64,000 bases of DNA from Patescibacteria group bacterium (GCA_041742135.1 JBGSJG010000001.1:131151-195150); one strand, 5' to 3'; shown: positions 41,396-63,648, counted from the stretch's first letter. Notes: generated by a model not told the origin, from the sequence alone. Program-made: numbers and translations.

Positions 41396-42372
41396 TTGGT
41401 GGTGCAGCCTCGCAGTATTGACGCAGGGATATAAGGAAATTGCATCGGAATTGGTGATCCCACAAACCGATCATCAAGACCAGCTGCAGCTGGTCTAAAT
41501 TCGTAATGATCATGAATACTGTTTGCATATCCGGTGTCACCCACTACTCCAAGTATGGTTCCTCGAGTTACTGGAATTTGGAAAACTTCGTCCGTAACAG
41601 GATTCCATATGTTTGATGAAATTGTCGTAAAATGTACATGTCTGGTTCTGTAAGGCACTCCATTTGAGCATTCTCCCAATATGTCCACAAATAAGCCATC
41701 ATATCTGTCTGTGCCGGCCCATCTTACAACTCCGTCGTGAGTTGCGATAATTGTGTGATTTGGTGTTATAAGTTGTCCTGAAGACAGTCCAACATCTATA
41801 GCTTCAAGGCCAAAATGCGTCCAGCCGCTGGGGGTGAAAGGTCCTTGTTGGATCCAATAGGCTTGACCCGAGCCAGTTGTGACAGGCCACCCAGAAGGTC
41901 CTCCCGATGGGCAATCCTGATAACCTTCTGTGCCACCATCTGTCACGATCGTTCCTCCTCCAGGCGCTACATAGGCCCCAGAGTTGATAATAAACAACAT
42001 GAAACCTATAAAAAGAACCAGTACCATAGCGGCTCCTATGAGAAAACCAAAAGAGATAGTTGCCGCTTGTGCGACTGCTGCCCCAAATGCTGCGGCTGCA
42101 TTAACAAAAGCAAAAGGGATTGCTCCAATCACGCGACCCACATCTTTTAATCCTTTTGTTGCTGCCGCCCCAAGAAGATTGCCCACAAACGCTCCGAGGA
42201 TGTTTCCAATCACAGGCACAGCCGAACCCAGAGTGCTTCCAAGTGCACTCCCAATAGCTTTGGCTGTCGCCGTCTGTGCAATTTTTTGGCCAATTGCTTT
42301 TCCGGCTGTTTTGCTTATAGCCGTTTGAGCGGTTCTTTCAACCCTTCCTGGCTGCTTGTTTTTGTCTTCCAT
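41374..42372 (-). CDS. Membrane-embedded M23/LytM-like peptidase with a Gly/Ala-zipper N-terminal region, a candidate cell-wall hydrolase for the T4SS-like machine
   Basis: The N-terminal 130 aa are Gly/Ala-rich amphipathic/TM (…IGNILGAFVGNLLGAAATKG…). The C-terminus has HTIIATHDGVV…, a TRHVHF-containing segment, and …GDTGYANSIHDHYEF (HxH), resembling the M23 active-site arrangement. Confidence 0.55.
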   Translation of the reverse strand: MEDKNKQPGRVERTAQTAISKTAGKAIGQKIAQTATAKAIGSALGSTLGSAVPVIGNILGAFVGNLLGAAATKGLKDVGRVIGAIPFAFVNAAAAFGAAVAQAATISFGFLIGAAMVLVLFIGFMLFIINSGAYVAPGGGTIVTDGGTEGYQDCPSGGPSGWPVTTGSGQAYWIQQGPFTPSGWTHFGLEAIDVGLSSGQLITPNHTIIATHDGVVRWAGTDRYDGLFVDILGECSNGVPYRTRHVHFTTISSNIWNPVTDEVFQIPVTRGTILGVVGDTGYANSIHDHYEFRPAAAGLDDRFVGSPIPMQFPYIPASILRGCTTNCGTTIP

Positions 42373-42373
42373 T

Positions 42374-44287: not shown

Positions 44288-45018
44288 TTTTTAGTATCTT
44301 TCTCAACCTCTAGTATTACAGGTTCTTTCTTTTCTTTAACTGCCTCGGCTGGCGGGTTATATACGTTATAATACAACTCTGTCACTTGCTCGCTACTTAG
44401 GTGGCGAAGGCGTAGTCCCAAACGTGCAGCCTGGCGAATCAAATGATCGCGTTTAGGAAAAAGTGCAATCTTTGCTTTTTTGACCACAAATTCTTTTGTG
44501 TAAGGAAGTGCCGCGCTTCTTTTAGACAACATCTTAAAAGATTGAGAAAGCCCAAGCTCAAGCGGCGAGAAGGGAATAACCAAAAAGAATCGCTTGCCCA
44601 AGACGTTTCTTTTTTTGGTAGTTTCGATGACGAAATTGTAATAACTATCCATAAGGAATTTCAGCTTGGGGCTCTGAATTTGCTTTGCTGACTCCTTTAA
44701 GTATTCCAAATACTGGGTAATGTCCTTTCTTTGTGTACGGATGACAATTTGAATCGAAAAGGAAAGACTGTTAATAAGCGCGGCATATGCCGCCACGACC
44801 GCTTCTTGCTCGTTATCGCTTAAGAGACCAAAGTTAAGCGAAGTTGACTCAAGAACAACAGCCGCCCCGCCATCTTTGTATAAAACAACCCCGTCAACAA
44901 TATCTGCAATAGGAAGATGAGCTTGAGTGGTAGTCACAAGCGGCCTGTTTGGTGCATTAAAAATTGGAACTTTTGAAAAAACGTTTTTTACAGGTGATAT
45001 TTTTGGCATATTAAACAC
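44284..45018 (-). CDS. VirB4 N-terminal-domain protein, a separate ORF translationally coupled (ATGA overlap) to the ATPase ORF
   Basis: LPIADIVDGVVLYKDGGAAVVLESTSLNFGLLSDNEQEAVVAAYAALINSLSFSIQIVIRTQRKD matches the start of Gram-positive VirB4/PrgJ/TcpF-type proteins. Its stop TGA overlaps the next ATG. Confidence 0.6.
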   Translation of the reverse strand: MFNMPKISPVKNVFSKVPIFNAPNRPLVTTTQAHLPIADIVDGVVLYKDGGAAVVLESTSLNFGLLSDNEQEAVVAAYAALINSLSFSIQIVIRTQRKDITQYLEYLKESAKQIQSPKLKFLMDSYYNFVIETTKKRNVLGKRFFLVIPFSPLELGLSQSFKMLSKRSAALPYTKEFVVKKAKIALFPKRDHLIRQAARLGLRLRHLSSEQVTELYYNVYNPPAEAVKEKKEPVILEVEKDTKK

Positions 45019-46027
45019 TCCAAACCGCGCGGTAAGGCGCGGCAGAATCGGGTAAAGCGTCTTTGGATTTTATCGCAATTGGCATTATTAGCTCCCCAGT
45101 GGTCCTAAAACTTAAAGGCTCAAAGTTTAAACCTTCCTTTTCAATTGCGATTTTGTATTCACCGTTAGGAAGTGGAGTGACGATCATAAAATGCCCAGCT
45201 TTGTTGGTTTTGAGAGCTCGAACAGGGCGACCGTCTGTGTCTGTAATTTCAAGTATTGCTCCTTCAACAATTTTCCCAACTGAATCCATCACTTGCCCAA
45301 CAACCGTGTTTGGCATAGTAGGAGGAGAAGGTGGTGCTGCCTCTGGTGAAAAGTCTGCGTTTTGAGTTTGTGGAGTCGTGCTTTGGGTAAGTGGCGCGGT
45401 AACCACTGAGGTTGTGACTGGTGTTTGTGTAGGAGGCTGGTTAAAGCCGGCAACCGGCACTTGAACAGAGGGAGCAGTTGGAACAACAAGAGGTTGTTTT
45501 TGCTCACTAGGGGCAATCGGTGCCACTGGGGTTACTGGTGGCGGCGGGGTTTCGGCTACAGCAGGAGAGCCCGCGGTATGCTTACCTCCAAGCATATGGG
45601 AAAGCTTGGAAAGAAAATCTTTCTCCTGTGCTTCTAGGTTGCGGGTGGCGTTATCTGCAGGCAAACTTTGAGGCACTTCTTCAACAGGAGTGTCTGCGCT
45701 AGCTTGTGTGTCAGCCGCAAAATACTGATCCGGGCTTCCTGTTTTTTTCCAAACAAACAAAGTTGGTGCATAGATTGACCTAAAAAATGCAACCAACCAC
45801 TGCTCAAGAGGCCGGTCTTGGATGGGCAAAAAGGCAAATGCTGCTCCAGCGACTACAGAAATCACAATCATCGGCCACTTAAAAAAGCCGGGCAAAGGGA
45901 GCGAATAAATTATAAGGCCCAAAACCGCGCCAACAGCAAGTTGGAAAAACTGCTTCAAAGTCATGTCTCCCACAAGCCGGAATTGGTAAGAGCTTATTTG
46001 TTGAGGTACAGGGTGTTGTTCAAACAT
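45011..46027 (-). CDS. VirB3-like two-TM protein fused to a Pro/Thr-rich linker and a C-terminal carboxypeptidase-regulatory-like beta-sandwich domain
   Basis: The N-terminus has 2 TM helices and …DRPLEQWLVAFFRSIYAPTLFVW…, a VirB3/TrbD-like layout directly upstream of VirB4. The linker is PPPVTPVAPIAPS…. The C-terminus (…DTDGRPVRALKTNKAGHFMIVTPLPNGEYKIAIEKEGLNFEP…) is CarbopepD_reg/transthyretin-like. Confidence 0.5.
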   Translation of the reverse strand: MFEQHPVPQQISSYQFRLVGDMTLKQFFQLAVGAVLGLIIYSLPLPGFFKWPMIVISVVAGAAFAFLPIQDRPLEQWLVAFFRSIYAPTLFVWKKTGSPDQYFAADTQASADTPVEEVPQSLPADNATRNLEAQEKDFLSKLSHMLGGKHTAGSPAVAETPPPPVTPVAPIAPSEQKQPLVVPTAPSVQVPVAGFNQPPTQTPVTTSVVTAPLTQSTTPQTQNADFSPEAAPPSPPTMPNTVVGQVMDSVGKIVEGAILEITDTDGRPVRALKTNKAGHFMIVTPLPNGEYKIAIEKEGLNFEPLSFRTTGELIMPIAIKSKDALPDSAAPYRAVWSV

Positions 46028-48637: not shown

Positions 48638-50272
48638 CTAAAGTGTTTTTGGTGTTCGATCTCCTCTACGGCCAATGGCCTTAACAACCCCTGTACTACT
48701 TTCTCTTAAGACTTGAGCACCCATACCTTCACCGGTTGACAGCAGAGTTCTGCCGACAGCATTTCTGAGCCACCCTTCACCTGATTGCATCCCTGCTCCT
48801 CTGAGTGCCAGTCCGTAGCCAATACCACTCTTTGCACCACCTGCGGCAGCCCCAATCGCCATTCCAGCGAGTCCTGCTCCAATCATACCTGAACGTTCTC
48901 TAGACATTTGCCCTGATATTATCAAGGATTTAATGTTATTAGCAAGACCTGGAGCCATCAGAAGCAGTGTTGAGCCAATAAATATTGCAAGCAGAGTAAC
49001 ATCTATACCACTAAAGCCGGGGAAGCTGATTTGCCCTGAGTTGACCAAAGGCTCGACACCATACGGATTTCCAGCGACAGTGTTTTCTAGAAGTCCACCA
49101 GATCCGCCCCCCATACCAAAAAGTAAAATATGGGCGAACATTACAGCAACTGAAATAGTTACGAATATAGATGCATGCCCAACAAGAGATCGAAGCATTT
49201 GAGTAAACATATTCCCACTTGGCGAGGCGACATATCCTAGTGCAGCGAAAGGCAAAGCAATAACATGGAGGATAATCATCACATATGTTCTTAGAAATAT
49301 CCAAAATATGCGAATGATGGCCAAAATAATCAATAGAAGCATGACCACCAACACTAGAATGCCAGCCACTATCCCGAGCACCCACCCAACCACTGGAAAC
49401 CCTCCAAAACCGCTTTTAAGAACAATCCAAACAACTGCGAGACCAAAATTCAATAATCCTCCGCCAATATCGTTGATAAGATTAAATATTGCTACGGGAT
49501 CTAGGCTGGATACTCCAGATTGCGACACGACAGCAGCAATGACTCCTTGAATAACATAGGACATATCAATTACAAACCCTGCAATTGCGTAGGAAAAAGT
49601 AATTAAAATAAAACCAATAATTACTCGAGGAATAGCTGAGGTGACACTGACACTTACTTGTGGCGAGATTCTCGCTCTAAACATGACCATGAAGGCTAAA
49701 AGAATAACTGCCAACGCCATAAGCGCGTAAGCCGCATTTCTAGAGGCTGCCCAAAGTTTTAAGATTGGTGCTAATGACCCGAAACCAAATCCTGCCTGTT
49801 GAGCATATGCTGGCTGTATTCCAATATTGTCCATAATTCCAGCAACATACGAAACCCCAGAGACAGGCCTGGTGGTTATCATTAAGTCAGAAAGCCGTGC
49901 AAATTCCAGAAAACCAAGACTCTTGCGAGGGGAAAGGGCGGTATCGGGTGAAGATGCGTCTGCAGTTGTAACACAACCCACAAAGTCGTCAAGCGCTGGG
50001 TGTTGTGTAGCACACTCAGAAATGTCGTGCTCGATGGCAAAATTTATTAGCGAATAAATGACCCACCAAACTTGTGCATGTGTGTATCTTTCACCAAAAA
50101 TTTCATTGTCAGGGATCGCTGTGTTGTTAACTTTGTCATTAAATTGCTGAAAGGTAGGAGCCCACCATTCGGCCTGAGCAGAGACAGTAGAGGGTTTAAC
50201 TGCTCCTATGAGAAAGATGGACGACAGTAGTGCGGCGACTAAGAATTTCTTAAACATCGATGATAATATCAT
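48638..50272 (-). CDS. VirB6/TrbL-like polytopic membrane protein
   Basis: A signal peptide, an about 130-aa extracytoplasmic domain, then at least 7 TM helices and a Gly-rich C-terminal tail. The architecture and its position next to VirB4/pilins fit VirB6. Confidence 0.5.
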   Translation of the reverse strand: MILSSMFKKFLVAALLSSIFLIGAVKPSTVSAQAEWWAPTFQQFNDKVNNTAIPDNEIFGERYTHAQVWWVIYSLINFAIEHDISECATQHPALDDFVGCVTTADASSPDTALSPRKSLGFLEFARLSDLMITTRPVSGVSYVAGIMDNIGIQPAYAQQAGFGFGSLAPILKLWAASRNAAYALMALAVILLAFMVMFRARISPQVSVSVTSAIPRVIIGFILITFSYAIAGFVIDMSYVIQGVIAAVVSQSGVSSLDPVAIFNLINDIGGGLLNFGLAVVWIVLKSGFGGFPVVGWVLGIVAGILVLVVMLLLIILAIIRIFWIFLRTYVMIILHVIALPFAALGYVASPSGNMFTQMLRSLVGHASIFVTISVAVMFAHILLFGMGGGSGGLLENTVAGNPYGVEPLVNSGQISFPGFSGIDVTLLAIFIGSTLLLMAPGLANNIKSLIISGQMSRERSGMIGAGLAGMAIGAAAGGAKSGIGYGLALRGAGMQSGEGWLRNAVGRTLLSTGEGMGAQVLRESSTGVVKAIGRRGDRTPKTL

Positions 50273-50300
50273 ATGCTTTTTGACTGTACCAGTGCAATAG

Positions 50301-53300
50301 TTAAGGTTGGCAAGTTAGTGACTTAGGGCTAACCGGCATTGGACAAGCGGAGAAATAATCCCAAGCTGTAGATGCTATCGCATCAAAGTATGTTGGTGAA
50401 GCAAAGCTCGTGCAACTTGATCCTCCTCGGAAGAAAATCTCCATGGCAATTTCCATGTCAGACCAACCTCTTGCTCTCAGTGTTGTAAAGCAGTTTGGGT
50501 AAGTTGATTGATAGGGGGTTTGGCTGTTCCAGATTTGTAAAAATCGAGTGTATTGAGCGTTGAAATTTTCAGGCGGGTATGCGGCATTGTTGATTCCAAA
50601 GTCCTGCCACAGTAGTGGCGAAGCTGTGTAGTTGCTGCAAGCGCTTTCGTGAGCCCAGATGGCTAACGCAAACGTTGGGTGAACGCCTAACGCGACCGCT
50701 CGGGAAACCACGTCGTTGTAACATCTTCGACCGTTTGACACCCCTCGGGAGTCCCATTGTTCACAGATTCTGATTGCATTATCTTTAAATGAACCAAGGT
50801 ATTGTGCAGGTAACGCAGTGTCTGGAATATCTGTCCTACAATTTGCTTCTGAGGCAATAGGTGGCGCAGGTTCGTCTGGTAGCTCGTCTTCCGAGAAGGT
50901 TTCATTTCCACAAAGCCCCAGAGGTCGAAGTGCACACTGAATACCTTCTAGGAAATAATCCTGCACACTTCCGATGTGAGGGAAATAAAACTCAGCTGCA
51001 CTACCGGGGCGGTTATTGCCAGACAGAGCTGAAACAGAGGCGGACGATCCATTTTCGACACTGATACTATTGGCTAAATACCCAGAGGTTGTTTCAGCCG
51101 GGATGTCTTTTATTGTTGAAAGAGGAGCGTCGGCGCTAATTCTAGGAAAAATACGTCTAAACACTGACCACGATCCCGCTACGAGCCGTTGCCAGACACT
51201 GTCTGCTTCTGGTGTATTTGCTGACATCGCAAGTGGAATGGTAATAGTTTTTTGGCAAGTGGTTGGGTATGTCATAGCTGCTTCTCTACAACCAACATTG
51301 TCAAATACTCCAGCGGGGGGGAGTGGAAGGACACATCGGCCAAGTCCTGGGGTACAGCTTGGGTCAGGATTCCAGGTACCCCCTATTCCGCAAGCTGCGG
51401 GCGACTCGCAATATCCAATTAACCAACAAGCGTTGTAGAGGTTTTGGTCTACTGAAGGTGTGAAATCACAGGTAAAGTCAGCGGTATAGCTTAGTGTGGC
51501 TTGGAGTGGATTTTCTCCAGCTACACCCTCTCGTTCAAGTTCGCCGTACAAATCATCTCCAGCATTTGATCTTGTGTCTTGGAATTCGCAACCCGGCATG
51601 CGTTGTGGGAGAGTGATGTCATCAGTCTTAGGGCTGTCAAGTGCACCAGTATATTCACCTGGAATGAATGTGCGCTGTGTAACCTCTGCCAATTCTTTCG
51701 TTTCTTCCATGTGAGCAAAATATAGATTTCTGCTGGCGCTGCCTGTTGGTGAATCACTTCCTTCTTGAGTTACAGTAAAATCTGTAATAGTTACCCCTTC
51801 GCCAGAAGGTAAGCCTATCGGGCTAAAAGAGGCCATGCCTATACGATCTTCTGTGGAAGAATATGGTACATATCCCAGAGCTTCTGGGCTTGAGAATGTT
51901 GTTGCCCCCATAGTTTTTAGAAATGTGTTAGCGAGCACCCCAGTCAGCCGGTTGTAGGTATTGCTTTGGCTGTAACACGCTTCGGGCGAATCGACAGAGC
52001 CGCACTCCACAATTTGATCATGTCTTTGGGTGCCAACATTATATCCTTGCTGAAACCTAAGGCCGTCAAATTTGTTTTCGTAGTAAGGAATAAAGCCAAA
52101 ATACCAACCTGCTATGTATCTGTCACCACTTTGAACTCGTTGGGGGAGAAGTTTTTTGATCGGGCCAGACATCGAAAGGAGCAGGTCTTGGTCGCTGGGA
52201 AAGCTAAAAAAACGCTCTTCAGCTCTTTGCACTACACCATTTAAGTACCAACTGGCATACCCCGCCATACGGTCTTTGTAGGTGAGTGTCGCGTTGGGAC
52301 CAGTTGCGTTGGGAACCAGTTGAGTATTTCCCATTATAGGCAACTGGGCTCTACTCAAATCGATTTCGGCATTTAAGTTACTATCTACGATAAACCTACA
52401 AGTTTGCGTCTCACCCGCGTCCCCGGTGCAGCTACCGGGGACTGCTTGCCCTTGGTTAACCTCAAGCGTTTCAATTACCGTAAAATCATTACCACACTGA
52501 TTAACGCCGCTGGCGGTTTTGTTGCACGGGTTTGCTGGGTATGGGCGAAGAGAGTGGTATTCTGGGTCGGTTACCGTGTTGCAATCCCAATTTTCGATTT
52601 CGTATGGCGTTGTAGTAATACAAGCAGGAGTTGCCCATAGCTCTGTGGCTGGTTCGTTAGGACCAGCAATTACCCACAGGTCGCCCGATATTTTTGAATT
52701 AACGTCTGCTAGAAAGTTGGCGTACTCCACTGGGTTTGCGAAATCACAAGTGTTTCCCGCACACACCCTAAGAATTGGTTTTTTACCCAACTCGTGAGCT
52801 CTGTTTGCAAAGTCTGCAACCGTTTGCACAGCTCCTCGGGAATAAGCAATTTCAAGTATCCAGTTAACATTGCCACTGTAGCCAACCGCAGTATTCACAA
52901 ATGTTCCAGGAGTGACCTCCATCGCCGAGTTAACACCTGCCTTGCCCGGATTGGTGCTGGTAATAGTGTCAAACTCCGCCTTATCAAGTTGGTGGCGAGT
53001 AAATTCTTGATTTCCGCCGAGGGCATTAAAATAGTTAATTGATGAAACCTTCGGGTCGTTTGCAGTGATTTGGTGTTGAGAAGCGGCAAGGCTGATCGAC
53101 CCAGGATTGGCATCATAATTAAAGTCACCATATTCTGTGAAGAATGTCGGGCCTCCAGTAAAGCGAGTTTTCCAAGATACACCCCGACCATCGGGTATGT
53201 CCGCTCGGGAATACCAGTCGTACGATGTAAAACTAAAACCACCACCCGGGACGTGTGAGTAAGAGTTACCCGCAAAGCCGTCAAGCCTACTGAAATCACC

Positions 53301-53585
53301 CCTTTCGCCGGGTTGAGTAGTCATCAAATCAAATATTTGCCATTCTACAGAGCTTGTTAGATTAAATGCGGGAGAGAGAAGCTTAATGTGGCTTAAATTT
53401 CCAGCACGAGTAGTAAGGGCGTTCATGTATATTGCCAAGTCGCGCGCAATGCACTGCACGTCAGGCTCGCCTGTAGTTTGAGCTTGTATTGCTGGGGGGG
53501 CAGAAGCTCTAGGCAACAAAACAACAACTAATGCAGTCAAAACAATTGTTGAACACAAAAGAAGCTTGGTGGCTAAATGCTTCAT
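50301..53585 (-). CDS. Large (1094 aa) Cys-rich secreted protein with a glycoside-hydrolase-like (NEP motif) region and a C-terminal lytic-transglycosylase-like (…HES…) region
   Basis: Signal peptide MKHLATKLLLCSTIVLTALVVVLLP. The segment …KKPILRVCAGNTCDF…WVIAGPNEP resembles a GH5/GH26-type strand-4 NEP. The C-terminal …FALAIWAHESACSNYTASP resembles an SLT catalytic Glu-Ser region. More than 30 Cys. Confidence 0.45.
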   Translation of the reverse strand: MKHLATKLLLCSTIVLTALVVVLLPRASAPPAIQAQTTGEPDVQCIARDLAIYMNALTTRAGNLSHIKLLSPAFNLTSSVEWQIFDLMTTQPGERGDFSRLDGFAGNSYSHVPGGGFSFTSYDWYSRADIPDGRGVSWKTRFTGGPTFFTEYGDFNYDANPGSISLAASQHQITANDPKVSSINYFNALGGNQEFTRHQLDKAEFDTITSTNPGKAGVNSAMEVTPGTFVNTAVGYSGNVNWILEIAYSRGAVQTVADFANRAHELGKKPILRVCAGNTCDFANPVEYANFLADVNSKISGDLWVIAGPNEPATELWATPACITTTPYEIENWDCNTVTDPEYHSLRPYPANPCNKTASGVNQCGNDFTVIETLEVNQGQAVPGSCTGDAGETQTCRFIVDSNLNAEIDLSRAQLPIMGNTQLVPNATGPNATLTYKDRMAGYASWYLNGVVQRAEERFFSFPSDQDLLLSMSGPIKKLLPQRVQSGDRYIAGWYFGFIPYYENKFDGLRFQQGYNVGTQRHDQIVECGSVDSPEACYSQSNTYNRLTGVLANTFLKTMGATTFSSPEALGYVPYSSTEDRIGMASFSPIGLPSGEGVTITDFTVTQEGSDSPTGSASRNLYFAHMEETKELAEVTQRTFIPGEYTGALDSPKTDDITLPQRMPGCEFQDTRSNAGDDLYGELEREGVAGENPLQATLSYTADFTCDFTPSVDQNLYNACWLIGYCESPAACGIGGTWNPDPSCTPGLGRCVLPLPPAGVFDNVGCREAAMTYPTTCQKTITIPLAMSANTPEADSVWQRLVAGSWSVFRRIFPRISADAPLSTIKDIPAETTSGYLANSISVENGSSASVSALSGNNRPGSAAEFYFPHIGSVQDYFLEGIQCALRPLGLCGNETFSEDELPDEPAPPIASEANCRTDIPDTALPAQYLGSFKDNAIRICEQWDSRGVSNGRRCYNDVVSRAVALGVHPTFALAIWAHESACSNYTASPLLWQDFGINNAAYPPENFNAQYTRFLQIWNSQTPYQSTYPNCFTTLRARGWSDMEIAMEIFFRGGSSCTSFASPTYFDAIASTAWDYFSACPMPVSPKSLTCQP

Positions 53586-53622: not shown

Positions 53623-53961
53623 TCAATTGTAGATGTCGAAGTTGAGAATTGCGGGTACACCAACAAAATTGGCAATTATTTGAACAATCAAAAACGCCAA
53701 AGCCAAAACTACTGTTCCCGCTATGGCATAAGTAATTGTGCTTTTGGCTCCCGCAACTTGCCTTGGGTCGCCACCTGAGAAAATAAAATAGAATCCTCCG
53801 ACAATAAGCATTACAAAAAGGATTATTCCACCAATTGGGAGTAGTGATGAAACAATTCTGCCAAAAACATCCGTGAGAGAGTAGAGTCCCGAAGCGCAAT
53901 TTTCACCGACAGCCCCAGGTGGGCACGGCGTGGGATCTTGCGCAAAAATAATTGATAGCAT
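53623..53961 (-). CDS. VirB2/TrbC-like pilin paralogue 1
   Basis: About 110 aa with two hydrophobic helices separated by the SGGDPRQ loop. Same design as the tandem array at 56.3-58.7 kb. Confidence 0.6.
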   Translation of the reverse strand: MLSIIFAQDPTPCPPGAVGENCASGLYSLTDVFGRIVSSLLPIGGIILFVMLIVGGFYFIFSGGDPRQVAGAKSTITYAIAGTVVLALAFLIVQIIANFVGVPAILNFDIYN

Positions 53962-56357: not shown

Positions 56358-56708
56358 TTACGGAGTAACAACGCTACCAATATTAAAATTCTGAATAATA
56401 TTGATTCCAAAAATTGTGCTAATGAGTTGGGCGAGAGCCCAAGCTGAAAACACTACAACCAAACCGATAAGCGCGCTTGTAACCTGATTCCTAGCTGATT
56501 CAGTCTGGCCTTTATCTCCGCCGGACATAATCCACTTTATTCCTCCGAGAATAAGCATAAAGAAGAATACCAATCCTGCTATAACCAAAATACTGTTGAT
56601 TGCCCAAGAAATCATACCACCAACGGTGATATTGGCAATGGGGCCAAAATTAGTTGGCGCGGTTAAATTTATTGTGTCTTGTGCAAATACTGTTGATAAA
56701 AATGGCAT
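56358..56708 (-). CDS. VirB2/TrbC-like pilin paralogue 2
   Basis: Two TM helices flanking SGGDKGQ. RBS AAGGAGG upstream. Confidence 0.6.
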   Translation of the reverse strand: MPFLSTVFAQDTINLTAPTNFGPIANITVGGMISWAINSILVIAGLVFFFMLILGGIKWIMSGGDKGQTESARNQVTSALIGLVVVFSAWALAQLISTIFGINIIQNFNIGSVVTP

Positions 56709-56732
56709 AATTTAAATTCACCTCCTTTTATT

Positions 56733-56771
56733 GGTTTGCTTTATAAAAAAATAATATTTGTTAAGCAAACC
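56733..56771 (-). promoter_or_regulatory. Inverted repeat (9-bp stem, about 20-nt AT loop) immediately 5' of the RBS of pilin paralogue 2
   Basis: GGTTTGCTT…AAGCAAACC. No U-tract follows on the transcribed strand. Confidence 0.4.
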
Positions 56772-56873
56772 TTAAAATTCAATATACAAAATCTTTCTAT
56801 TATAATGGCAAAAAAGTATTTGTCAAATTTTCAAGAAAGACTATCTATTTATGAACTAAGATAGGGGAGCATG

Positions 56874-57263
56874 TCAAGGGGTACCAACTGTTGCTAGCGT
56901 TGGTATGTCAATAAGAAGAAGATTTATTCCAAAGACATTCTCAATAAGGGTAAAAACTGCCCAAGCTGCAAAAAGTATTACAAGTCCAATAATTGCGTTA
57001 AGAAGCTTCTGTCTTGCTTCTTCTAGTTTGTTTTTGTCGCCTCCCGAGCCGATCCATGCTACTCCGCCAGTCAGGAACTGGAAGACAAAATAAAGCGAAC
57101 CAACAATTAGAATAATTGTTAACATGACGCTAATTAGCGCGCTTAAATACCCAACTCCTCCTGTTGCACCAGGTCCTAATGTAATGAATCGATTCAAATC
57201 ACCAATCGCTGGGTTTTTTATGTTTTCCCCTGGTATTGGTGCGGCCAGTATTGTGCTGATCAT
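56874..57263 (-). CDS. VirB2/TrbC-like pilin paralogue 3
   Basis: Two TM helices, loop GSGGDKNK. Confidence 0.6.
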   Translation of the reverse strand: MISTILAAPIPGENIKNPAIGDLNRFITLGPGATGGVGYLSALISVMLTIILIVGSLYFVFQFLTGGVAWIGSGGDKNKLEEARQKLLNAIIGLVILFAAWAVFTLIENVFGINLLLIDIPTLATVGTP

Positions 57264-57264
57264 G

Positions 57265-57624
57265 TTAAGTTAAACTGAAAATAAGTAAAGGAATATTTAA
57301 GAAAGGAATTCCAAGAATGTCGCCTACAATGTCGATTAAAAATATTGCTGATATAACAACAACAACCCCAATCAAACTCGTAGTAAGCTTTCCCTTTGCT
57401 GCAGCAAGGGCGTTTTTGTCCCCACCAGAGCTTATTATTTGAATTGCTGCCAAGAAGAATTGGATAACAAACCATATAAACGCAATGATCGTGATAACAC
57501 CCAGTGCAGTAGATATTACATCACTAAGCTTGTACACGGAACCTGCTCCTGGATTTTGGCCAAGTGTTCCAGGTAGCGTGAAACCTCCAGATGGAGCTAC
57601 GGGTATGTCTGCTAGTCTTGCCAT
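57265..57624 (-). CDS. VirB2/TrbC-like pilin paralogue 4
   Basis: Two TM helices, loop SSGGDKNA. Confidence 0.6.
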   Translation of the reverse strand: MARLADIPVAPSGGFTLPGTLGQNPGAGSVYKLSDVISTALGVITIIAFIWFVIQFFLAAIQIISSGGDKNALAAAKGKLTTSLIGVVVVISAIFLIDIVGDILGIPFLNIPLLIFSLT

Positions 57625-57972
57625 TTAAGGTGTTGGAATAGATGGGTTGATCAAGAAAGTTGCATCACCAAATATTATTTGGCCAAATATTGCAGCTAGA
57701 ACCAAAGACCCCCCAGCAATCAAAAGCCCAATTACGCTTTGGTATATTTTTGCCCAAGCTGTTTGAACCATTTTAGGGTCATCCCCAGCAGCCAAGAAAC
57801 TGTATCCCGCGAGGATGAAATTAAACAGGGCGTATATGCCCGCAATAACTATCAAAACGTTAAATGCTAACTGAAGCACTGTACCCAAAGCCCCACCTTC
57901 CACAGTCCCAAAATTTTGAGTTGGTTCTGGCTGATTAATGGTACCCCAATTAACTTGTAAAAATTGAAACAT
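57625..57972 (-). CDS. VirB2/TrbC-like pilin paralogue 5
   Basis: Two TM helices, loop AAGDDPKM. Confidence 0.6.
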   Translation of the reverse strand: MFQFLQVNWGTINQPEPTQNFGTVEGGALGTVLQLAFNVLIVIAGIYALFNFILAGYSFLAAGDDPKMVQTAWAKIYQSVIGLLIAGGSLVLAAIFGQIIFGDATFLINPSIPTP

Positions 57973-57975
57973 TTT

Positions 57976-58281
57976 TTAAAAAGGATCGGGAGCAGTCAAG
58001 AAATTCGTCCCACTCCATATCTCTATGATACGTATAACCCAGTAAGCTGTAAAGACCACGACAAATCCTACCAACGCCCAAGTGATAGCCTGCTTGCCGT
58101 TTGCAGCTCCTTTTGCGTCGCCAGAACCAGCGGAAGCGATCATTGAAACTCCACCTAATATAAACAAAAGGACCATTATAATTCCGGAAACAACAATAGC
58201 GGCTGTTACTAAATTACCTATAAAATCACCCACAGAAACAGATCGTCCGAGAGGAGAATTGAAAGTACTGCCTAAATCCAT
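57976..58281 (-). CDS. VirB2/TrbC-like pilin paralogue 6
   Basis: Two TM helices, loop ASAGSGDAKG. Confidence 0.6.
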   Translation of the reverse strand: MDLGSTFNSPLGRSVSVGDFIGNLVTAAIVVSGIIMVLLFILGGVSMIASAGSGDAKGAANGKQAITWALVGFVVVFTAYWVIRIIEIWSGTNFLTAPDPF

Positions 58282-58322
58282 ATTTTGTATATCAAAACTG
58301 ACCCCCCTGCTTAGAGGGTTCT

Positions 58323-58664
58323 CTATAAAAAGGTCCCTCTAAACCCAGGGACACCCAAGAGCAATCCAACAATTTGAACAATCCAGTATGCGCAAAAAAT
58401 AATTACAAATCCTATTAGGGCTTGGGTAAGGCGTGCTTTGGCGCTCTCGAGCGCCTTAGGGTCGCCCTTTGAAGTCATCATTGAAAGGCCAGCGGAAATG
58501 AAAAAGAAAAGAAAGGCTGCTCCAGCGACAAAAAAAATAATATTCATTATCCCCCAATTGAAAAGCCGACCGATTGTGGCGGAACCTGCGAATCTGTAAT
58601 CACTCCCAAGGGCACCTTCAAGTTCTCCATAGTTCGGTAATTGTGCGAGTACAGCATTGAACAT
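58323..58664 (-). CDS. VirB2/TrbC-like pilin paralogue 7
   Basis: Two TM helices, loop TSKGDPKA. Confidence 0.6.
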   Translation of the reverse strand: MFNAVLAQLPNYGELEGALGSDYRFAGSATIGRLFNWGIMNIIFFVAGAAFLFFFISAGLSMMTSKGDPKALESAKARLTQALIGFVIIFCAYWIVQIVGLLLGVPGFRGTFL

Positions 58665-58688: not shown

Positions 58689-60218
58689 TTAGCTAAACAA
58701 GCCTAAGATGTTTACTCCTACAAATCTTAGCAAAAAGACAGAGAGAACTATCATTAAGAGGCCTCCGATGGATGAAAAAAACAATGCTTTTGAGTTTTCC
58801 AGTTTTTTTGGATCTCCACTTGAAGTGGCAAACATGAAGCCCGCCACAGCAATCAAAAATAGGGCAATGCCTCCGCCCACTGACAATCCCCATTGGATGA
58901 AAAATCTTGTAGTGCTTTGGACTAACTGCAAGGGAATACAGCCGATGGCTGTGTCTATGCCAAGCTCAGTGCCGTCTGAGCACAAAGGATTATTCTGTGC
59001 TGGAACTCCACCTAGCTGTCTGCATAAACCAGAAGTAGGGCAACAAAAGAGCGCTCCGTCGATATCGACCGTGTCTCCTGCTCGATCGCACAGTATTCCT
59101 CCAGCGTTTTCGCAAAATACTTCAGTCGCTCCTTCTGGGGCTTGGATACACTGAGTCGACAGTGAGCAAGTGCCGCCGTTACAGTGTCCAGAAAGGCATT
59201 GGGAATCATCAGTGCATGATCCTCCGAGACCAATTTCTCCACCACCACACCAACAGTAAGTTAGGCCAGGTGTCGCTTGAACTTCCGGTGATCCTTCGTC
59301 GCAATAATATGCGCCACCATCATTCTGGCAGCATGATTGCCCGTATGAGCCGCACCCCGCTGTGTTCCCTGTGACACAACTGCCTCGTAGCCCCGCCGCA
59401 ATTGGTAGCCCAGTTGCACTTGTGGGGTGAATCCAGCACTGACGCAAGCCAAAAAGATCGCAGTCGCTTTGGATAATGTTGTCGAGGCAGGCTTCTTCTT
59501 CAAAAGTTAGGGTGCTACATTGGCCACCTCGATTGCTACAATTAAATACTACGGGCTCAGTTTCGTTTGGAGTGCAAACTCCTGGTAGATCTACATAGCT
59601 TCCAGGAAACTCAGCACACCATTCGGAGGCAGTCATTGACCCGTTGCATCTAAGATCTTCTGTACTACTGCAAGATTGGTTGTTTAAGCAACCATCACCT
59701 TCTAGTCCACCTGTGCGAGGTATGCATTTAAACTGGATGCACTGAAAGGCTGGGTCGCAAAGACTATCTATATCGCAAGCGTCACAAATCAAACCGCCTT
59801 CGACTGGGCTAACTCTTACAAAAACTGCGTCGATGGCTGTACAGAGATTTGTATAGAAAGGGCCTCCATCCCACCTGCGCAAAACGATCGTATTGCCTAT
59901 TGTTCCTTCAACAAAGAGGGAATTGCCATTGTTGTCATTTAATATGGACAACTGGACAGTTCCTCCTGTTTTGACAATATTACCTACGTCAATCCATCTG
60001 TCTGTTCGAGGAGACCAAATGTGATACCTCGTGTTGTCTGCGCTGGGATCATTGGGTGCGTTATTTATTGTGATGTTTACAGATTCGCCAGGATTTACTG
60101 TTGGCGTATTAACTACGATTGCACAACCGGATTGCGCTGAAGCGGTCCGGGGAGCAAGGGCCGCAGTATTTACAAAAAGGCCAAGTCCAAGTAGTAGCAA
60201 AACTAACTTTTTTTTCAT
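58689..60218 (-). CDS. Cys-rich secreted protein (509 aa) with a C-terminal pilin-like two-TM module
   Basis: Signal peptide MKKKLVLLLLGLGLFVNTAALA. The ectodomain has at least 45 Cys. The C-terminus is DTAIGCIP…GGIALFLIAVAGFMFATSSGDPKK…LLRFVGVNILGLFS, the same helix-loop-helix as the small pilins. Confidence 0.6.
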   Translation of the reverse strand: MKKKLVLLLLGLGLFVNTAALAPRTASAQSGCAIVVNTPTVNPGESVNITINNAPNDPSADNTRYHIWSPRTDRWIDVGNIVKTGGTVQLSILNDNNGNSLFVEGTIGNTIVLRRWDGGPFYTNLCTAIDAVFVRVSPVEGGLICDACDIDSLCDPAFQCIQFKCIPRTGGLEGDGCLNNQSCSSTEDLRCNGSMTASEWCAEFPGSYVDLPGVCTPNETEPVVFNCSNRGGQCSTLTFEEEACLDNIIQSDCDLFGLRQCWIHPTSATGLPIAAGLRGSCVTGNTAGCGSYGQSCCQNDGGAYYCDEGSPEVQATPGLTYCWCGGGEIGLGGSCTDDSQCLSGHCNGGTCSLSTQCIQAPEGATEVFCENAGGILCDRAGDTVDIDGALFCCPTSGLCRQLGGVPAQNNPLCSDGTELGIDTAIGCIPLQLVQSTTRFFIQWGLSVGGGIALFLIAVAGFMFATSSGDPKKLENSKALFFSSIGGLLMIVLSVFLLRFVGVNILGLFS

Positions 60219-60219
60219 G

Positions 60220-60990
60220 CTAGAAAAAACCTAACAAATTTACACCAATAAATCTTAATAGGTAAACAGATAGCACTACCATAATCAGGCCGCCGATCGC
60301 CGATAGCAGTAATTCTTGGCCGCCTTGCAAACGCCTCGGGTCACCTTGGGAAGTTGTTATTCTAAAGGCTGCAAAGCCAATAAGAAGAAGGGCAATTCCG
60401 CCTGCTATGCCAATTGCCCATGTAAGAAAAAACTTCGTCATTTCAGGTACGTTGTTTAGTGGTATACAGCCGATCGCCGTGTTGACCCAACCTTCGCCTT
60501 CCTCGCAACCTTGAGATACCAATTCTGAAGCGGGGATTACGGTTCCATCACCTGGGGTGCCGTCATCGGCCGGAGGTATGGTGGTTGTTGGTACGCACGA
60601 AAATATGGAAGTTGAACTGCAAGTAGTAGCAGTAAGGCTTTGACACCCACCCCCCGGCTGATATCCAGATGCGCAGTTGCTGACTGTATTACAGACCCTG
60701 CCTACTGGGTCCCAATTGCAGGTGTATTTATTTATTAACCCGGCTGGTGCAGTACAAGGGAAACTAGCAGAGTTGCATACAGCGGTACCTTGACTGGTAA
60801 GAGAAATACATAGACTAGGATTCGTGCTTTCTCCAAGTGATTCGTCACAGGATTCGCTTCCTACTCCACATGCGCCAAAAGTGTTTTCCCATGCACATGA
60901 GAAAAAATTTGAAGATGCTTGAGCTTTCACATCAGTTGTGAAGAAAAAAAACAGAAACACTGGAAATAGTAAAAACAAAACCCTTTTCAT
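60220..60990 (-). CDS. Cys-rich secreted protein (256 aa) with a C-terminal pilin-like module
   Basis: Signal peptide. Cys-rich ectodomain. The C-terminus is NTAIGCIP…TTSQGDPRR…LLRFIGVNLLGFF. Confidence 0.6.
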   Translation of the reverse strand: MKRVLFLLFPVFLFFFFTTDVKAQASSNFFSCAWENTFGACGVGSESCDESLGESTNPSLCISLTSQGTAVCNSASFPCTAPAGLINKYTCNWDPVGRVCNTVSNCASGYQPGGGCQSLTATTCSSTSIFSCVPTTTIPPADDGTPGDGTVIPASELVSQGCEEGEGWVNTAIGCIPLNNVPEMTKFFLTWAIGIAGGIALLLIGFAAFRITTSQGDPRRLQGGQELLLSAIGGLIMVVLSVYLLRFIGVNLLGFF

Positions 60991-61009
60991 ACTTCAAGTT
61001 TAGCACAAG

Positions 61010-61918
61010 CTAAAACAAGTTAAGAAGTTCTTCGGAAACGAAACGGATAATAAAAATAGACAGAAGGATCATTATAAGCCCTGCTATGGCCGATGATAAT
61101 GTGTCTCGTGCATCCTGAAGCCTTTTTGGGTCGCCCTTGGTTGTCATTATTTTTACAGCTGAAATTGAAATTAAAAATAATGCAATTCCACCTGCGACTC
61201 CCAGACTCCACCTAATCATAAACTGCGTGAACGATTCGACGCTCTGAAAAGGAACGCAGCCGATTGCTGTGTCAATCCAGCCAATACCTTCAATACATTC
61301 ACCCGCCACTTTGGCGGCAGTATGAGTTGCTGTTATGCAGCAGGTTGGTTGGCTGTCTGGGCAGTAAGCAAAAATAATTTCCTCGTCAGGAGCACATGAA
61401 CTTCTACAATTACCGCCGGCAGTGGGGCAGTCTGCTGGAGCTGCAGCCTCACACTGACTTGAGCACTGGTACTCATTGATATATGGCGGGTCCACGCCCC
61501 CTACGCATTCGACCAAGGGTGTGTCTGGGTCAAGATCGCATTCGATACAGGTTCTACTTTGGCAGAAATAACCCAAGCTTCCCGTTGGGGGTGGCATTTC
61601 GAGACAAGCTTGGATAATTGGAGCATTTCCGCATTCTGCAAAAGAGTAGTCTTCACACATTGAATCCAAAAGCAGGTCGTCGATGGGAGGAGGGTCCCCT
61701 GTAGGTGTCCACCCAGGGCGGCACAGCTCTGCTGAGGTATATATACCGCGGGTGGTGTGTGCACACCTTCCTAGCTCATCGCTCCAGGCACAAACCCAAC
61801 AACCACTTTCTTCAAAACCACTACCACATTCTTCAGGTCCAGCTTGAGCGTTTTTGGCTCCCAAGAAGGTAGACAAAAACAAGAGAAAGACAATGAATGC
61901 CAGCCTTATAAACTTCAC
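61010..61918 (-). CDS. Cys-rich secreted protein (302 aa) with a C-terminal pilin-like module
   Basis: Signal peptide. Cys-rich ectodomain. The C-terminus is DTAIGCVP…TTKGDPKR…IIRFVSEELLNLF. Confidence 0.6.
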   Translation of the reverse strand: MKFIRLAFIVFLLFLSTFLGAKNAQAGPEECGSGFEESGCWVCAWSDELGRCAHTTRGIYTSAELCRPGWTPTGDPPPIDDLLLDSMCEDYSFAECGNAPIIQACLEMPPPTGSLGYFCQSRTCIECDLDPDTPLVECVGGVDPPYINEYQCSSQCEAAAPADCPTAGGNCRSSCAPDEEIIFAYCPDSQPTCCITATHTAAKVAGECIEGIGWIDTAIGCVPFQSVESFTQFMIRWSLGVAGGIALFLISISAVKIMTTKGDPKRLQDARDTLSSAIAGLIMILLSIFIIRFVSEELLNLF

Positions 61919-61968: not shown

Positions 61969-63648
61969 ATGAAGTTGCCGCGCGTGCTTACTGCCTTTGT
62001 AATATTTGTCTTTTTGTCGCATCTTTTTAATCTGGTTTATGCGGCTAATTGTCCCTCAACTGACTACGACTGCCAGATTGCCGAAATTCAAAAAGAAATC
62101 GATGCCCTTTCTCCCGCACACGAAAACAACAAACAGGAATTATCTGATTTACAAAAACAGTTTGTGTCGCTCAAGGCGAGGATCTCGCAGATTTCAAATG
62201 AACTAATTAATGTTGCAAGCAGAATCGAAGATCGGGAAGAAGACCTTGCTTACACAAAAGAGGTTTTTGAAGAGAAAGCAGACAGTCACTATAGATTTAT
62301 CCGTACTTACGACCCAATCCTGCCTTTTATTTCATCGGAGGATGCTTCAAGTGCTCTAATTGAGGTCGGTCTTCGCTCCCGTGCCGCAGATGGTGACCGC
62401 CAGACAATGGAGGGCTACGCCACAGAGCTTATTAAGCTTAAAGAAGATCAAGACAATCTGACCAAAAACAAGCAAAGCTTGGCTAACGCACAAGCAAGTG
62501 TGGATAGCCGCGCCAAATTTTTGGAAGGGGAAATCGGTAAAGTAGAGGATTATATCCAGAGCTTATCGAGCCGACAAGAAGAACTATTAGCACTTAAGGC
62601 AGGAGGCTTTTCAACTTCCATTGGAGACACGCCTGCAACTCTTGAGCCTTGTAGCGGTCCTCCGGGAAGTGCCAATTTTTGCGATCCTGGTTTCAGGCCG
62701 GCTTTTGCCGCCTTTTCTTTTGGAGCTCCACACCGAACTGGCATGAGCCAATACGGTGCACTAGGTCGCTCGAAATCTGGGCAATCTGCGGAGACAATTT
62801 TGTCTGCATATTATCAAGGAGCAGAGCTGACCAAAGGGTTTGGTGTTCCTGACACTATTGGCGTTACGGGGATTGGCCGTGTTTCGTTTGAAGAAAATTA
62901 CTTGATGGGTATTTACGAAGTGCCGGAAAAGTGGGGAGACGAAGGCGGGTTTGAGGCCCTAAAAGCTCAGGCTGTGGCTGCTCGTAGCTATGCCTTGTCA
63001 GTAACCAATAACGGCGCGGGAACTATTTGCCCCACTGAATCTTGCCAGGTTTACAAGCCACAGCTCAAAACTGGTAAGTGGGCAGAAGCTGTACGTGCTA
63101 CTAGAGGATGGGTGATTACCCGTGGAGGCCAGCCTGTGTCGACATATTACTCAGCCTCTACTGGTGGATTTACAATTTCACAGTGGGGTTGGAGCGGAAT
63201 TAAAGACACATCTGGAGATTGGCCGGGGACTGCATACGAGAAAATTGGTGGAAGCCCTTGGTTTTATAAGGGCTGGTACAAAAGTCGGGCAGGTAACAGT
63301 TGTGGTAGAGGTAATCCCTGGCTTTCTTCAGAAGACATGGCAGATATCTTAAATGCTTGGAAGGTTTTATATCAAGGTGGTGGAGATGTGGGGCGTGTAT
63401 CGCCCGTGGGTGAGTGTTGGGGAGGAAACCCCTATCCTAAGGGTGAGCTTGCAAACATTGGGGGGTACACTAGCGTGAGCTCTGTCTCGGTTGTGTATTC
63501 AAATTCGGGTTCTACTCAGTCGGTGAGCTTTTCCACCAACAAAGGGTCGGTAGGAATTTCAGGAGAGGAACTTAAGCGCGCTTTCAATCTCCGTGCACCG
63601 GGATATGTAGGCATCAAGTCTTCGCTTTTTAATATAGAAAAGATATAA
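61969..63648 (+). CDS. SpoIID/LytB-domain protein with an N-terminal signal/TM and a coiled-coil region
   Basis: Coiled-coil at 40-220. The SpoIID/LytB signature is …GAPHRTGMSQYGALGRSKSGQSAETILSAYYQGAEL… and …AQAVAARSYAL…. Confidence 0.7.
   Translation: MKLPRVLTAFVIFVFLSHLFNLVYAANCPSTDYDCQIAEIQKEIDALSPAHENNKQELSDLQKQFVSLKARISQISNELINVASRIEDREEDLAYTKEVFEEKADSHYRFIRTYDPILPFISSEDASSALIEVGLRSRAADGDRQTMEGYATELIKLKEDQDNLTKNKQSLANAQASVDSRAKFLEGEIGKVEDYIQSLSSRQEELLALKAGGFSTSIGDTPATLEPCSGPPGSANFCDPGFRPAFAAFSFGAPHRTGMSQYGALGRSKSGQSAETILSAYYQGAELTKGFGVPDTIGVTGIGRVSFEENYLMGIYEVPEKWGDEGGFEALKAQAVAARSYALSVTNNGAGTICPTESCQVYKPQLKTGKWAEAVRATRGWVITRGGQPVSTYYSASTGGFTISQWGWSGIKDTSGDWPGTAYEKIGGSPWFYKGWYKSRAGNSCGRGNPWLSSEDMADILNAWKVLYQGGGDVGRVSPVGECWGGNPYPKGELANIGGYTSVSSVSVVYSNSGSTQSVSFSTNKGSVGISGEELKRAFNLRAPGYVGIKSSLFNIEKI

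Follow-up and report, generated by a model that had tools for sequence, protein, structure and literature searches.

N-terminally extended VirB2-like pilin-family proteins with variable, cysteine-rich ectodomains at the head of a Patescibacterial pilin array

Three head genes and their C-terminal pilin modules

The window analysed here is a 64,000-nucleotide stretch of DNA from a Patescibacteria group bacterium of Microgenomatia type (GCA_041742135.1, JBGSJG010000001.1:131151-195150), in which positions 58,689 to 61,918 encode three consecutive proteins of 509, 256 and 302 amino acids (aa), each combining an N-terminal signal peptide and a large cysteine-rich extracytoplasmic region with a C-terminal module related to the small VirB2-like pilins of type IV secretion systems (T4SS). 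The genes precede an array of small pilin genes and are referred to below as head genes. An earlier sequence-only reading of the window had proposed this gene trio and this architecture; open reading frames (ORFs) of these lengths were found exactly where that reading had placed them, and the signal peptide and large N-terminal Cys-rich region were borne out in all three proteins.

All three genes lie on the minus strand. Head gene 1 (302 aa; 61010..61918; ORF called from a GTG start) encodes a signal peptide at residues 1-26 (61841-61918), an acidic ectodomain with 20 Cys (61298-61840) and a pilin module extending from C208 to the C-terminus (61010-61297). Head gene 2 (256 aa; 60220..60990) is a full-length paralogue of head gene 1 at 30% identity, with a signal peptide of ∼23-25 residues, an ectodomain with 12 Cys and a pilin module at approximately residues 162-256 (60220-60507). 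Head gene 3 (509 aa; 58689..60218) comprises a signal peptide at residues 1-28, an ectodomain of ∼380 aa with 34 Cys, the first ∼100 aa of which are modelled as beta-strands, and a pilin module from C413 to the C-terminus (58689-58982). The genes are separated by only 19 nucleotides (302- and 256-aa proteins) and 1 nucleotide (256- and 509-aa proteins). Hydropathy profiles contain exactly three hydrophobic segments per protein, corresponding to the N-terminal signal peptide and two C-terminal helices. The signal peptides, as read from the sequence, are of the classical Sec type and end ASA↓Q, VKA↓Q and AQA↓G; the extensions that follow are acidic, with D+E against K+R counts of 28/5, 10/2 and 43/15 for head genes 1, 2 and 3, respectively, and the whole proteins contain 22, 14 and 36 Cys, all even numbers. 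The observed architecture is thus real and confirmed for the three head proteins.

The C-terminal ∼100 aa of the three proteins, of which the module itself occupies ∼95 aa, align with 47-55% pairwise identity and 34 invariant columns, and pairwise BLASTP between the modules returns E values of 1e-28 to 3e-34, in keeping with the near residue-for-residue correspondence originally noted. Scores against the T4SS_pilin family (Pfam accession: PF18895; gathering score 26.6) are 27.8 bits for the 302-aa protein, 22.9 bits for the 256-aa protein and 16.4 bits for the 509-aa protein, such that only the first lies above the gathering score; ten long relatives from the wider class described below score 18-31 bits. 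When a profile of the three modules was compared with one of the window's seven small pilins (hhalign), the probability was 97% and the E value 1.3e-10 over 60 columns spanning the helix-loop-helix, and the loop Asp (D469) and a helix-2 Gly (G486) are invariant in all ten window proteins, that is, the three head proteins and the seven small pilins. The homology of the C-terminal modules to the small VirB2-like pilins is genuine, and the lack of significant alignment with them that the sequence-only reading had named as a refutation was not observed.

More distant pilin families are reached weakly. None of the three head proteins matched the TrbC/VirB2 hidden Markov model (HMM; PF04956) at E<=1, the sole match among the window pilins being the 112-aa small pilin (E 0.0034, below cut-off). 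Sequence searches of the PDB with both profiles found no relatives. Weak matches to the Mbov_0395 family (NF045849) were obtained for the 509- and 302-aa modules (E 0.001-0.005) and for one small pilin (E 1.4e-4), with scores of 16-21 bits against a curated cut-off of 40. At 256-509 aa, the head proteins also exceed the ∼100-130 aa of a typical PF18895 pilin.

Structure prediction with AlphaFold2 (AF2) supports the helix-SxGD-helix design recognised by the sequence-only reading, placing two long helices and a short loop in both modelled proteins: for the 302-aa protein, a helix at 227-259, a 4-residue loop and a helix at 264-301 (block-mean predicted local distance difference test (pLDDT) 87-93), and for the 509-aa protein the same arrangement with helices at 433-465 and 470-504 (pLDDT 81-88). 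In PDB fold searches (Foldseek), the best relevant match was an Aeropyrum conjugative pilin (8dfu; E 1.3, probability 0.82), which is not significant, and the helical hairpin matched type III secretion system needle proteins, coiled coils and the Aeropyrum pilin about equally. In the 509-aa protein, beta-strands are predicted over the first ∼100 residues; an immunoglobulin or fibronectin type III fold was considered for this part and rejected, the matches having E values of 0.13 or worse, and no adhesin fold is claimed.

Two familiar kinds of surface protein were also considered. Classical Sec signal peptides and a C-terminal hydrophobic pilin part rule out a type IV pilin with a class III signal peptide. 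The sequence-only reading had allowed that the proteins might be ordinary C-terminally anchored surface proteins of a known family, yet no LPXTG sorting motif occurs in the three head proteins, no sorting-signal family was matched in an NCBIfam scan of them, and their C-terminus consists of two helices, unlike the single helix of known C-terminally anchored surface proteins.

A discrete pilin class and its TAIGC cap

Hundreds of proteins, both from Woesebacteria and from other Patescibacteria, matched the three-module profile and share a conserved motif ahead of the first helix. To place the window genes in context, a genome set comprising one genome per GTDB species was scanned, yielding 74 related loci for six-frame HMM analysis, from genomes labelled Woese-, Shapiro-, Gottesman- and Blackburnbacteria, Microgenomates and Patescibacteria; metagenome-assembled genomes titled 'uncultured Gammaproteobacteria' are taken as mislabelled. 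Start codons in these loci were set by a simple signal-peptide heuristic, and some very short class members (101-107 aa) are leaderless and may be mis-calls. Genes bearing the motif (n=95) encode proteins of 101-509 aa with a median of 200 aa (46/95 exceed 200 aa) and a continuous length distribution, whereas the other pilins of the 74 loci (n=281) cluster tightly about a median of 106 aa. Among non-window genes, profile scores separate the motif-bearing proteins (63-118 bits) from the other pilins (<=54 bits) with almost nothing between. The C-terminal tail past the second helix has a median of 4 aa in the motif-bearing proteins against 15 aa in small pilins. In 74/74 loci the motif genes form the 5' head of a same-strand small-pilin array, with a single such gene in 63 loci and two to four in the remaining 11. 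The motif-bearing proteins are a discrete class, and the head genes are N-terminally extended members of this Patescibacterial VirB2-like pilin-family class at the edge of PF18895.

The motif logo from 94 motif-bearing genes of species-representative genomes reads G-[IV]-[ND]-T-A-I-G-C-[IV]-P, with a second Cys usually 10-14 residues upstream; in an alignment of 91 sequences, the two Cys vary hardly or not at all. The class signature is accordingly C-x(10-14)-G-[IV]-[ND]-T-A-I-G-C-[IV]-P, followed by a helix, the loop (S/T)xGDP(K/R)(K/R)L and a second helix, with the protein ending ∼4 residues later. Hundreds of short relatives of 97-140 aa carry C-x(n)-[DNS]TAIGC[IV]P 4-15 residues past the signal-peptide cleavage site or directly after the start codon, and so have no extension at all (for example P0079, P0047, P0025 and P0072). 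In the AF2 model of the 302-aa protein, a beta-hairpin at 214-223, modelled with high confidence as a cap over the helices, spans most of the WIDTAIGCVP motif. The sequence-only reading had taken the motif for the junction between two fused parts, or alternatively for a processing site releasing a pilin from a pro-protein. The first of these descriptions has to be replaced, as the motif is a class-defining N-terminal cap that is present in short members lacking any extension: it is part of the mature module, and no fusion seam. Processing at the motif is unlikely because it is equally conserved in members with no upstream part to release, and the modelled beta-hairpin likewise speaks against it. 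The region is probably, judging from the model and the paired Cys, a disulfide-stapled hairpin at the outer face of the membrane.

The abundance of the class was assessed by searching 1.84 billion cluster representatives exhaustively with HMMER, which returned 11,812 matches at E<=1e-3 and 5,030 at E<=1e-10. Among the best 150 matches, 128 are at least 180 aa long and 146 carry the motif, the module being located at the extreme C-terminus in 141 of these 146. A first profile search had returned only proteins of <=179 aa, suggesting that long forms are rare; this was an artefact of a search that apparently favours matches of near-query length, and the dominance of long forms is evident from both the exhaustive search and the six-frame analysis of the loci.

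To avoid the selection bias of searching by motif, a second, motif-independent sample was drawn from metagenome contigs anchored on the SpoIID-like protein encoded beside the array. In this small sample of 29 evaluable loci (those with enough upstream sequence), 22 possess a pilin array, and an N-extended head gene is present in 22/22 arrays; the motif is of the strict form in 15 of the heads and a variant in 7 (TAIGPI, TSLGCIP, TMLGCIS, TPFGCIP and others). The N-extended architecture is therefore not peculiar to this genome; searching with the motif and module, as the sequence-only reading had suggested, reveals a conserved, widespread and abundant class in Microgenomatia. Current surveys aimed at small pilins probably under-count or overlook it, because many members fall below the PF18895 cut-off and contain no other domain.

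Several observations on the margins of the class may be recorded here. Variant heads of the SpoIID-anchored metagenome set retain the architecture with the motif Cys replaced by Pro or Asp (TAIGPI, TALGDIP), so that a hairpin disulfide is not universal. Three loci (L009, with a 507-aa ORF containing 52 Cys, L049 and L130) encode long N-extended pilin-family proteins without the strict motif or second in the array. Poly-pilin ORFs were also found in the database (P0180, P0169, P0229, P0270, P0185), for example a head-class module followed by one or two in-frame small pilins, and one such ORF of 820 aa comprises eight pilin modules; the linkers carry (V/A/I)YAQ. These ORFs may be real polyproteins or may reflect missed stop codons, and, judging from the linker sequences, the second helix of one module may double as an internal signal peptide of the module behind it.

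Variable extensions and the surrounding locus

The N-terminal extensions share a composition. An even number of Cys is found in the mature protein of 84/94 genome-derived members (binomial p=1e-15) and of 138/146 database members, and Cys number rises with length across the class (r=0.83), at ∼9% of residues; from small pilins, Cys is all but absent. This parity suggests that the ectodomain is disulfide-rich and oxidatively folded outside the cell. Dsb- and VKOR-type oxidoreductases were absent from the larger window ORFs scanned, a scan limited to the window. The 'EGF/knottin-like' label applied by the sequence-only reading is not upheld, since no Pfam family is matched by the ectodomains, and ten other long extensions of the class likewise contain no domain above threshold in Pfam and NCBIfam scans. 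Matches of the ectodomains to LEAP-2 and defensins (E 0.01-0.6) are sub-threshold and were rejected as cysteine-pattern noise.

The extensions do not share a sequence. All module pairs of the class align, with a median identity of 53%, whereas only 42/3660 ordered pairs of extensions do so with BLASTP E<1e-3; the rate contrast between module and extension is extreme, and the extensions are hypervariable. In the collections searched, each window protein has one or two full-length relatives at most: the 302-aa protein aligns over its full length with P0122 (35% identity) and the 509-aa protein with P0152 (37% identity), and no relative exceeding 40% full-length identity was found in a collection of 5.8 billion proteins. 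The species representative closest to the window (L013) is only ∼30-36% identical in the extensions, its 307-aa head gene matching the 302-aa protein at ∼30% and its 505-aa head gene matching the 509-aa protein at 36%. P0153 combines a module 80% identical to that of the 509-aa protein with a different extension.

Comparisons between closely related genomes show how this variability is distributed. In the L043/L048 pair, in which the SpoIID-like proteins are 95% identical, two head genes are conserved throughout (modules 94-95% and extensions 91-97% identical), whereas a third retains a 91% identical module behind extensions of 93 and 128 aa that are only 23% identical. For L001/L013 (SpoIID 86%), the corresponding figures are 87% for the module and 28% for the extension, and in L046/L051 (SpoIID 87%) a module 83% identical is found in head genes of 269 and 103 aa. 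On these sequence comparisons, the pattern looks like cassette replacement, or gain and loss, between near-identical genomes and does not look like gradual divergence. Long DNA repeats that might drive cassette exchange were sought among the three window paralogues, which have in common only a 22-nucleotide motif-coding stretch at 86% identity.

The head genes are followed directly downstream by six small, leaderless PF18895 pilins of 113, 101, 115, 119, 129 and 116 aa (56358..58664, minus strand). A seventh small pilin, of 112 aa (53623..53961, minus strand), has the best PF18895 score of the window (44.5 bits) and the weak TrbC/VirB2 match mentioned above; all seven small pilins counted by the sequence-only reading match PF18895. 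The small pilins are leaderless. Most of their ATGs have an in-frame stop 1-3 codons before them, and the first helix begins after ∼33-41 residues. A short prefix, M-x(1-10)-[LFIY]-A-Q, is found in 103/274 small pilins of the related loci, and its AQ is the same AQ that ends head-class signal peptides; by its sequence, it may be vestigial or a dedicated processing site, with a possible N-terminal Gln or pyroglutamate. A perfect sigma-70 consensus, TTGACA-16-TATAAT (56799-56826, minus strand), lies in the 165-nucleotide gap before the last small pilin gene, and terminator-like hairpins (58301-58352, minus strand) directly follow the first small pilin (113 aa); these sequence elements suggest that the array genes are differentially expressed. 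The stretch that separates small pilins six and seven (54032-56271) contains a plus-strand SAM-dependent methyltransferase gene and a minus-strand gene for a 501-aa polytopic membrane protein with no Pfam match, for which the related loci contain no homologue and few homologues, respectively.

Divergent from the head genes, a SpoIID-like protein with a long coiled-coil N-terminus is encoded at 61969..63648 (plus strand), and a divergent upstream SpoIID-like gene is found in 71/74 related loci. It is a candidate for a peptidoglycan-remodelling, VirB1-like function, which is reportedly missing for the most part from Patescibacterial T4SS loci (PMC12102498). Behind the array, proteins of 1094 and 544 aa without Pfam or NCBIfam matches are encoded at 48638..53585 (minus strand), with homologues behind the pilin array in 36 and 39 of the 74 loci, respectively; the 1094-aa protein, given its size and its place in the locus, may correspond to Southlakia's large VirB6-like protein, which was annotated by structure. 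The T4SS core follows at 41374..46027 (minus strand), comprising a PrgI/VirB3-like protein (338 aa), a TrsD-like protein (244 aa), a VirB4-like ATPase (637 aa) and an M23 peptidase (332 aa), and is adjoined by dnaN and dnaA on the opposite strand. Homologues of PrgI, TrsD and VirB4 lie downstream of the arrays in related loci as far as the 10-kb flank reaches. The locus is the chromosomal, origin-proximal, monoderm-type T4SS locus known from Patescibacteria (PMC12102498). The remaining genes of the window are housekeeping genes (groEL, aminoacyl-tRNA synthetases, yidC, dprA and others).

Interpretation and comparison with known systems

The reading preferred here, with a rough probability of 0.55, is that the pilin-class module displays a variable host-interaction cassette as part of the T4SS, true incorporation into a pilus or its tip carrying only roughly half of that weight. 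In the mechanism proposed, a cleavable Sec signal peptide would export the N-terminal part, with signal-peptidase cleavage expected from established rules at the three sites given above, and the acidic, Cys-rich cassette would fold oxidatively outside the cell, as the even Cys counts imply. The two helices would insert N-out/C-out with the basic (S/T)xGDP(K/R)(K/R) loop inside, as in VirB2/TraA, a topology suggested by homology, the AF2 model and the charge distribution; the pilin N-terminus would point outward, and cassettes of 0 to ∼400 aa would therefore be accepted. More speculatively, the same T4SS machinery that handles the small pilins would extract the protein from the membrane and present the variable cassette at the cell surface, most likely as a minor or tip subunit of a putative T4SS pilus serving as a host- or target-recognition module; the tip position might be gained by incorporation as the first subunit made and assembled in a monoderm T4SS pilus. 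A tip or adhesin role of the head proteins is plausible, and rapid replacement of cassettes is what would be anticipated if they determine the specificity of an obligate epibiont. A bolder formulation, to be taken only tentatively, would make the TAIGC class the adhesin or host-specificity determinant of the Patescibacterial T4SS and the first 'modular VirB2 pilins', in which the outward N-terminus of a tip-incorporated subunit would carry an exchangeable, disulfide-rich receptor-binding cassette; swapping of cassettes between strains would then determine the host cell to which the epibiont can attach or from which it can feed.

Several findings weigh against the preferred reading. No recognisable adhesin domain was found in Pfam and NCBIfam scans of the ectodomains of the three window proteins, pLDDT is <50 over most of the ectodomain in both AF2 models, and fold searches of both models against the PDB returned nothing significant. 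Two of the three modules score below the PF18895 gathering threshold. Many genomes have only a short class member, indicating that the core function of the class is independent of a large ectodomain. A T4SS pilus has so far been observed in no Patescibacterium, such that filament assembly is hypothetical, and a bulky domain on a helical-hairpin pilin is possibly incompatible sterically with a pilus shaft.

The last two points also count in favour of the leading rival, in which the head proteins would be anchored in the membrane, as surface proteins or as accessory components of the T4SS base, the hairpin being only an anchor or channel dock that is never polymerised and the ectodomain acting at the cell surface in adhesion, wall or S-layer interaction, or sensing. 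Ectodomains of up to 400 aa would appear bulky for a shaft, an anchored ectoprotein would account just as well for the topology and export signals, and the lack of the ∼15-aa C-terminal tail sets the class apart from the presumed polymerising small pilins. A plain anchor, however, need not be conserved, and conservation of the module far exceeds that of the small pilins, with ∼24 columns invariant or nearly so, among them the GD loop common to pilins; this strong conservation and shared invariant loop argue that the module does more than anchor, and the fixed first place in the pilin operon argues for a role in the same assembly pathway. This rival is accordingly a possible but less favoured explanation. 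Cleavage at or near TAIGC, releasing a small pilin together with a soluble Cys-rich peptide (an effector, toxin or signal), is considerably more improbable. TrbC, VirB2 and TraA pilins are indeed proteolytically matured, and the (V/A/I)YAQ linkers of the poly-pilin fusions resemble signal-peptidase sites; processing of multi-module proteins is thereby probable, but at AQ and not at TAIGC. The motif itself is equally conserved where it lies 4-15 residues past the signal-peptide cleavage site or the start codon and nothing could be released, the model packs it against the helices as a beta-hairpin, a near-invariant Cys ∼13 residues upstream is consistent with a disulfide, and variant heads with Pro or Asp for Cys keep the architecture. 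That the extensions arose by artefact or chance, through ORFs called too long or gene predictions fused ahead of ordinary small pilins, is hardly credible: although some database entries are fused or mis-started ORFs, each of the three window ORFs opens with a canonical signal peptide and can be read in frame as coding sequence over its whole length, independent assemblies of two Logan runs yielded these same proteins, full-length homologues exist (P0122, P0152 and the 307- and 505-aa head genes of L013), and the family-wide even Cys parity is incompatible with non-coding sequence.

If display of a variable cassette by the module is correct, the head class provides a concrete candidate for host recognition by host-dependent ultrasmall bacteria, for a T4SS without a known adhesin. 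The class also shows that a VirB2 scaffold tolerates N-terminal cargo of up to ∼400 residues, which bears on T4SS pilus biology and on display engineering.

The head genes belong to a widespread, real and apparently undescribed gene class, set within VirB2-like arrays that are themselves already published. Such arrays comprise 2-11 genes in Patescibacteria, are abundant in Microgenomatia and Saccharimonadia, and often lie near dnaA; a pilin array and the T4SS are essential for the epibiotic life of the Saccharibacterium Southlakia epibionticum, the only genetically tractable Patescibacterium (PMC12102498, PMC10633639). In these accounts the Patescibacterial pilins are described as small proteins and no adhesin was detected (PMC12102498, PMC10633639); the function of the T4SS has been called completely unknown. 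The Southlakia array (SEML1_0014-0019) has the same module family within a T4SS locus near dnaA that encodes PrgI/VirB3, TrsD, VirB4 and tandem divergent pilins; the window head class differs in its TAIGC hairpin, signal peptide and variable Cys-rich N-extension of 0-400 aa. The PF18895 domain of one Southlakia pilin (SEML1_0015) lies at residues 115-180, a modest N-extension that is uncommented in the searched part of the text and hints at a mild counterpart of the head class. A preprint reports that PF18895 dominates freshwater-specific structure clusters, a pattern that hypervariable extensions would produce. In line with the sequence-only reading, which had called the architecture previously unremarked, neither the TAIGC motif nor a head class combining a signal peptide with an N-extension was found to be described in open-access papers and bioRxiv on T4SS and Patescibacteria.

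Beyond Patescibacteria, the Mbov_0395 family (NF045849) of Mycoplasma integrative and conjugative elements consists of small pilin-like proteins without an ectodomain; its weak matches to the window modules, at the level of sequence, point to pilin-like proteins in other wall-less or monoderm T4SS. The TrbC/VirB2/TraA conjugative pilins (PF04956) have in common with the head class a helix-loop-helix hairpin, an N-out/C-out topology, a basic or lumen-facing loop and an encoding locus with VirB3 and VirB4, while differing in that they serve Gram-negative T4SS, whereas the host here is monoderm, and in that the head proteins have no significant sequence match to them. To our knowledge, known TrbC/VirB2/TraA pilins have a long leader and no large mature ectodomain. 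The niche proposed for the head class, that of a target-contact element of a T4SS, is occupied elsewhere by VirB5-type tip proteins and by PrgB, to neither of which it is homologous; VirB5 is soluble and folds as a three-helix bundle, and PrgB is an LPXTG-anchored adhesin. A modular two-domain design is exemplified by FimH and PapG of chaperone-usher pili, by the modular type IV pilins PilB and PilC of Streptococcus sanguinis, and by filamentous-phage g3p, in which a conserved polymerisation or anchor module is joined to a variable, often disulfide-bonded receptor-binding module at the filament tip or surface, with small subunits encoded nearby. The folds and assembly machines of all these systems are unrelated to those considered here, the head proteins having neither a donor-strand immunoglobulin-like pilin domain nor a class III prepilin leader; the likeness of the head class to FimH/PapG, PilB/PilC and g3p is an analogy, one of design logic only.

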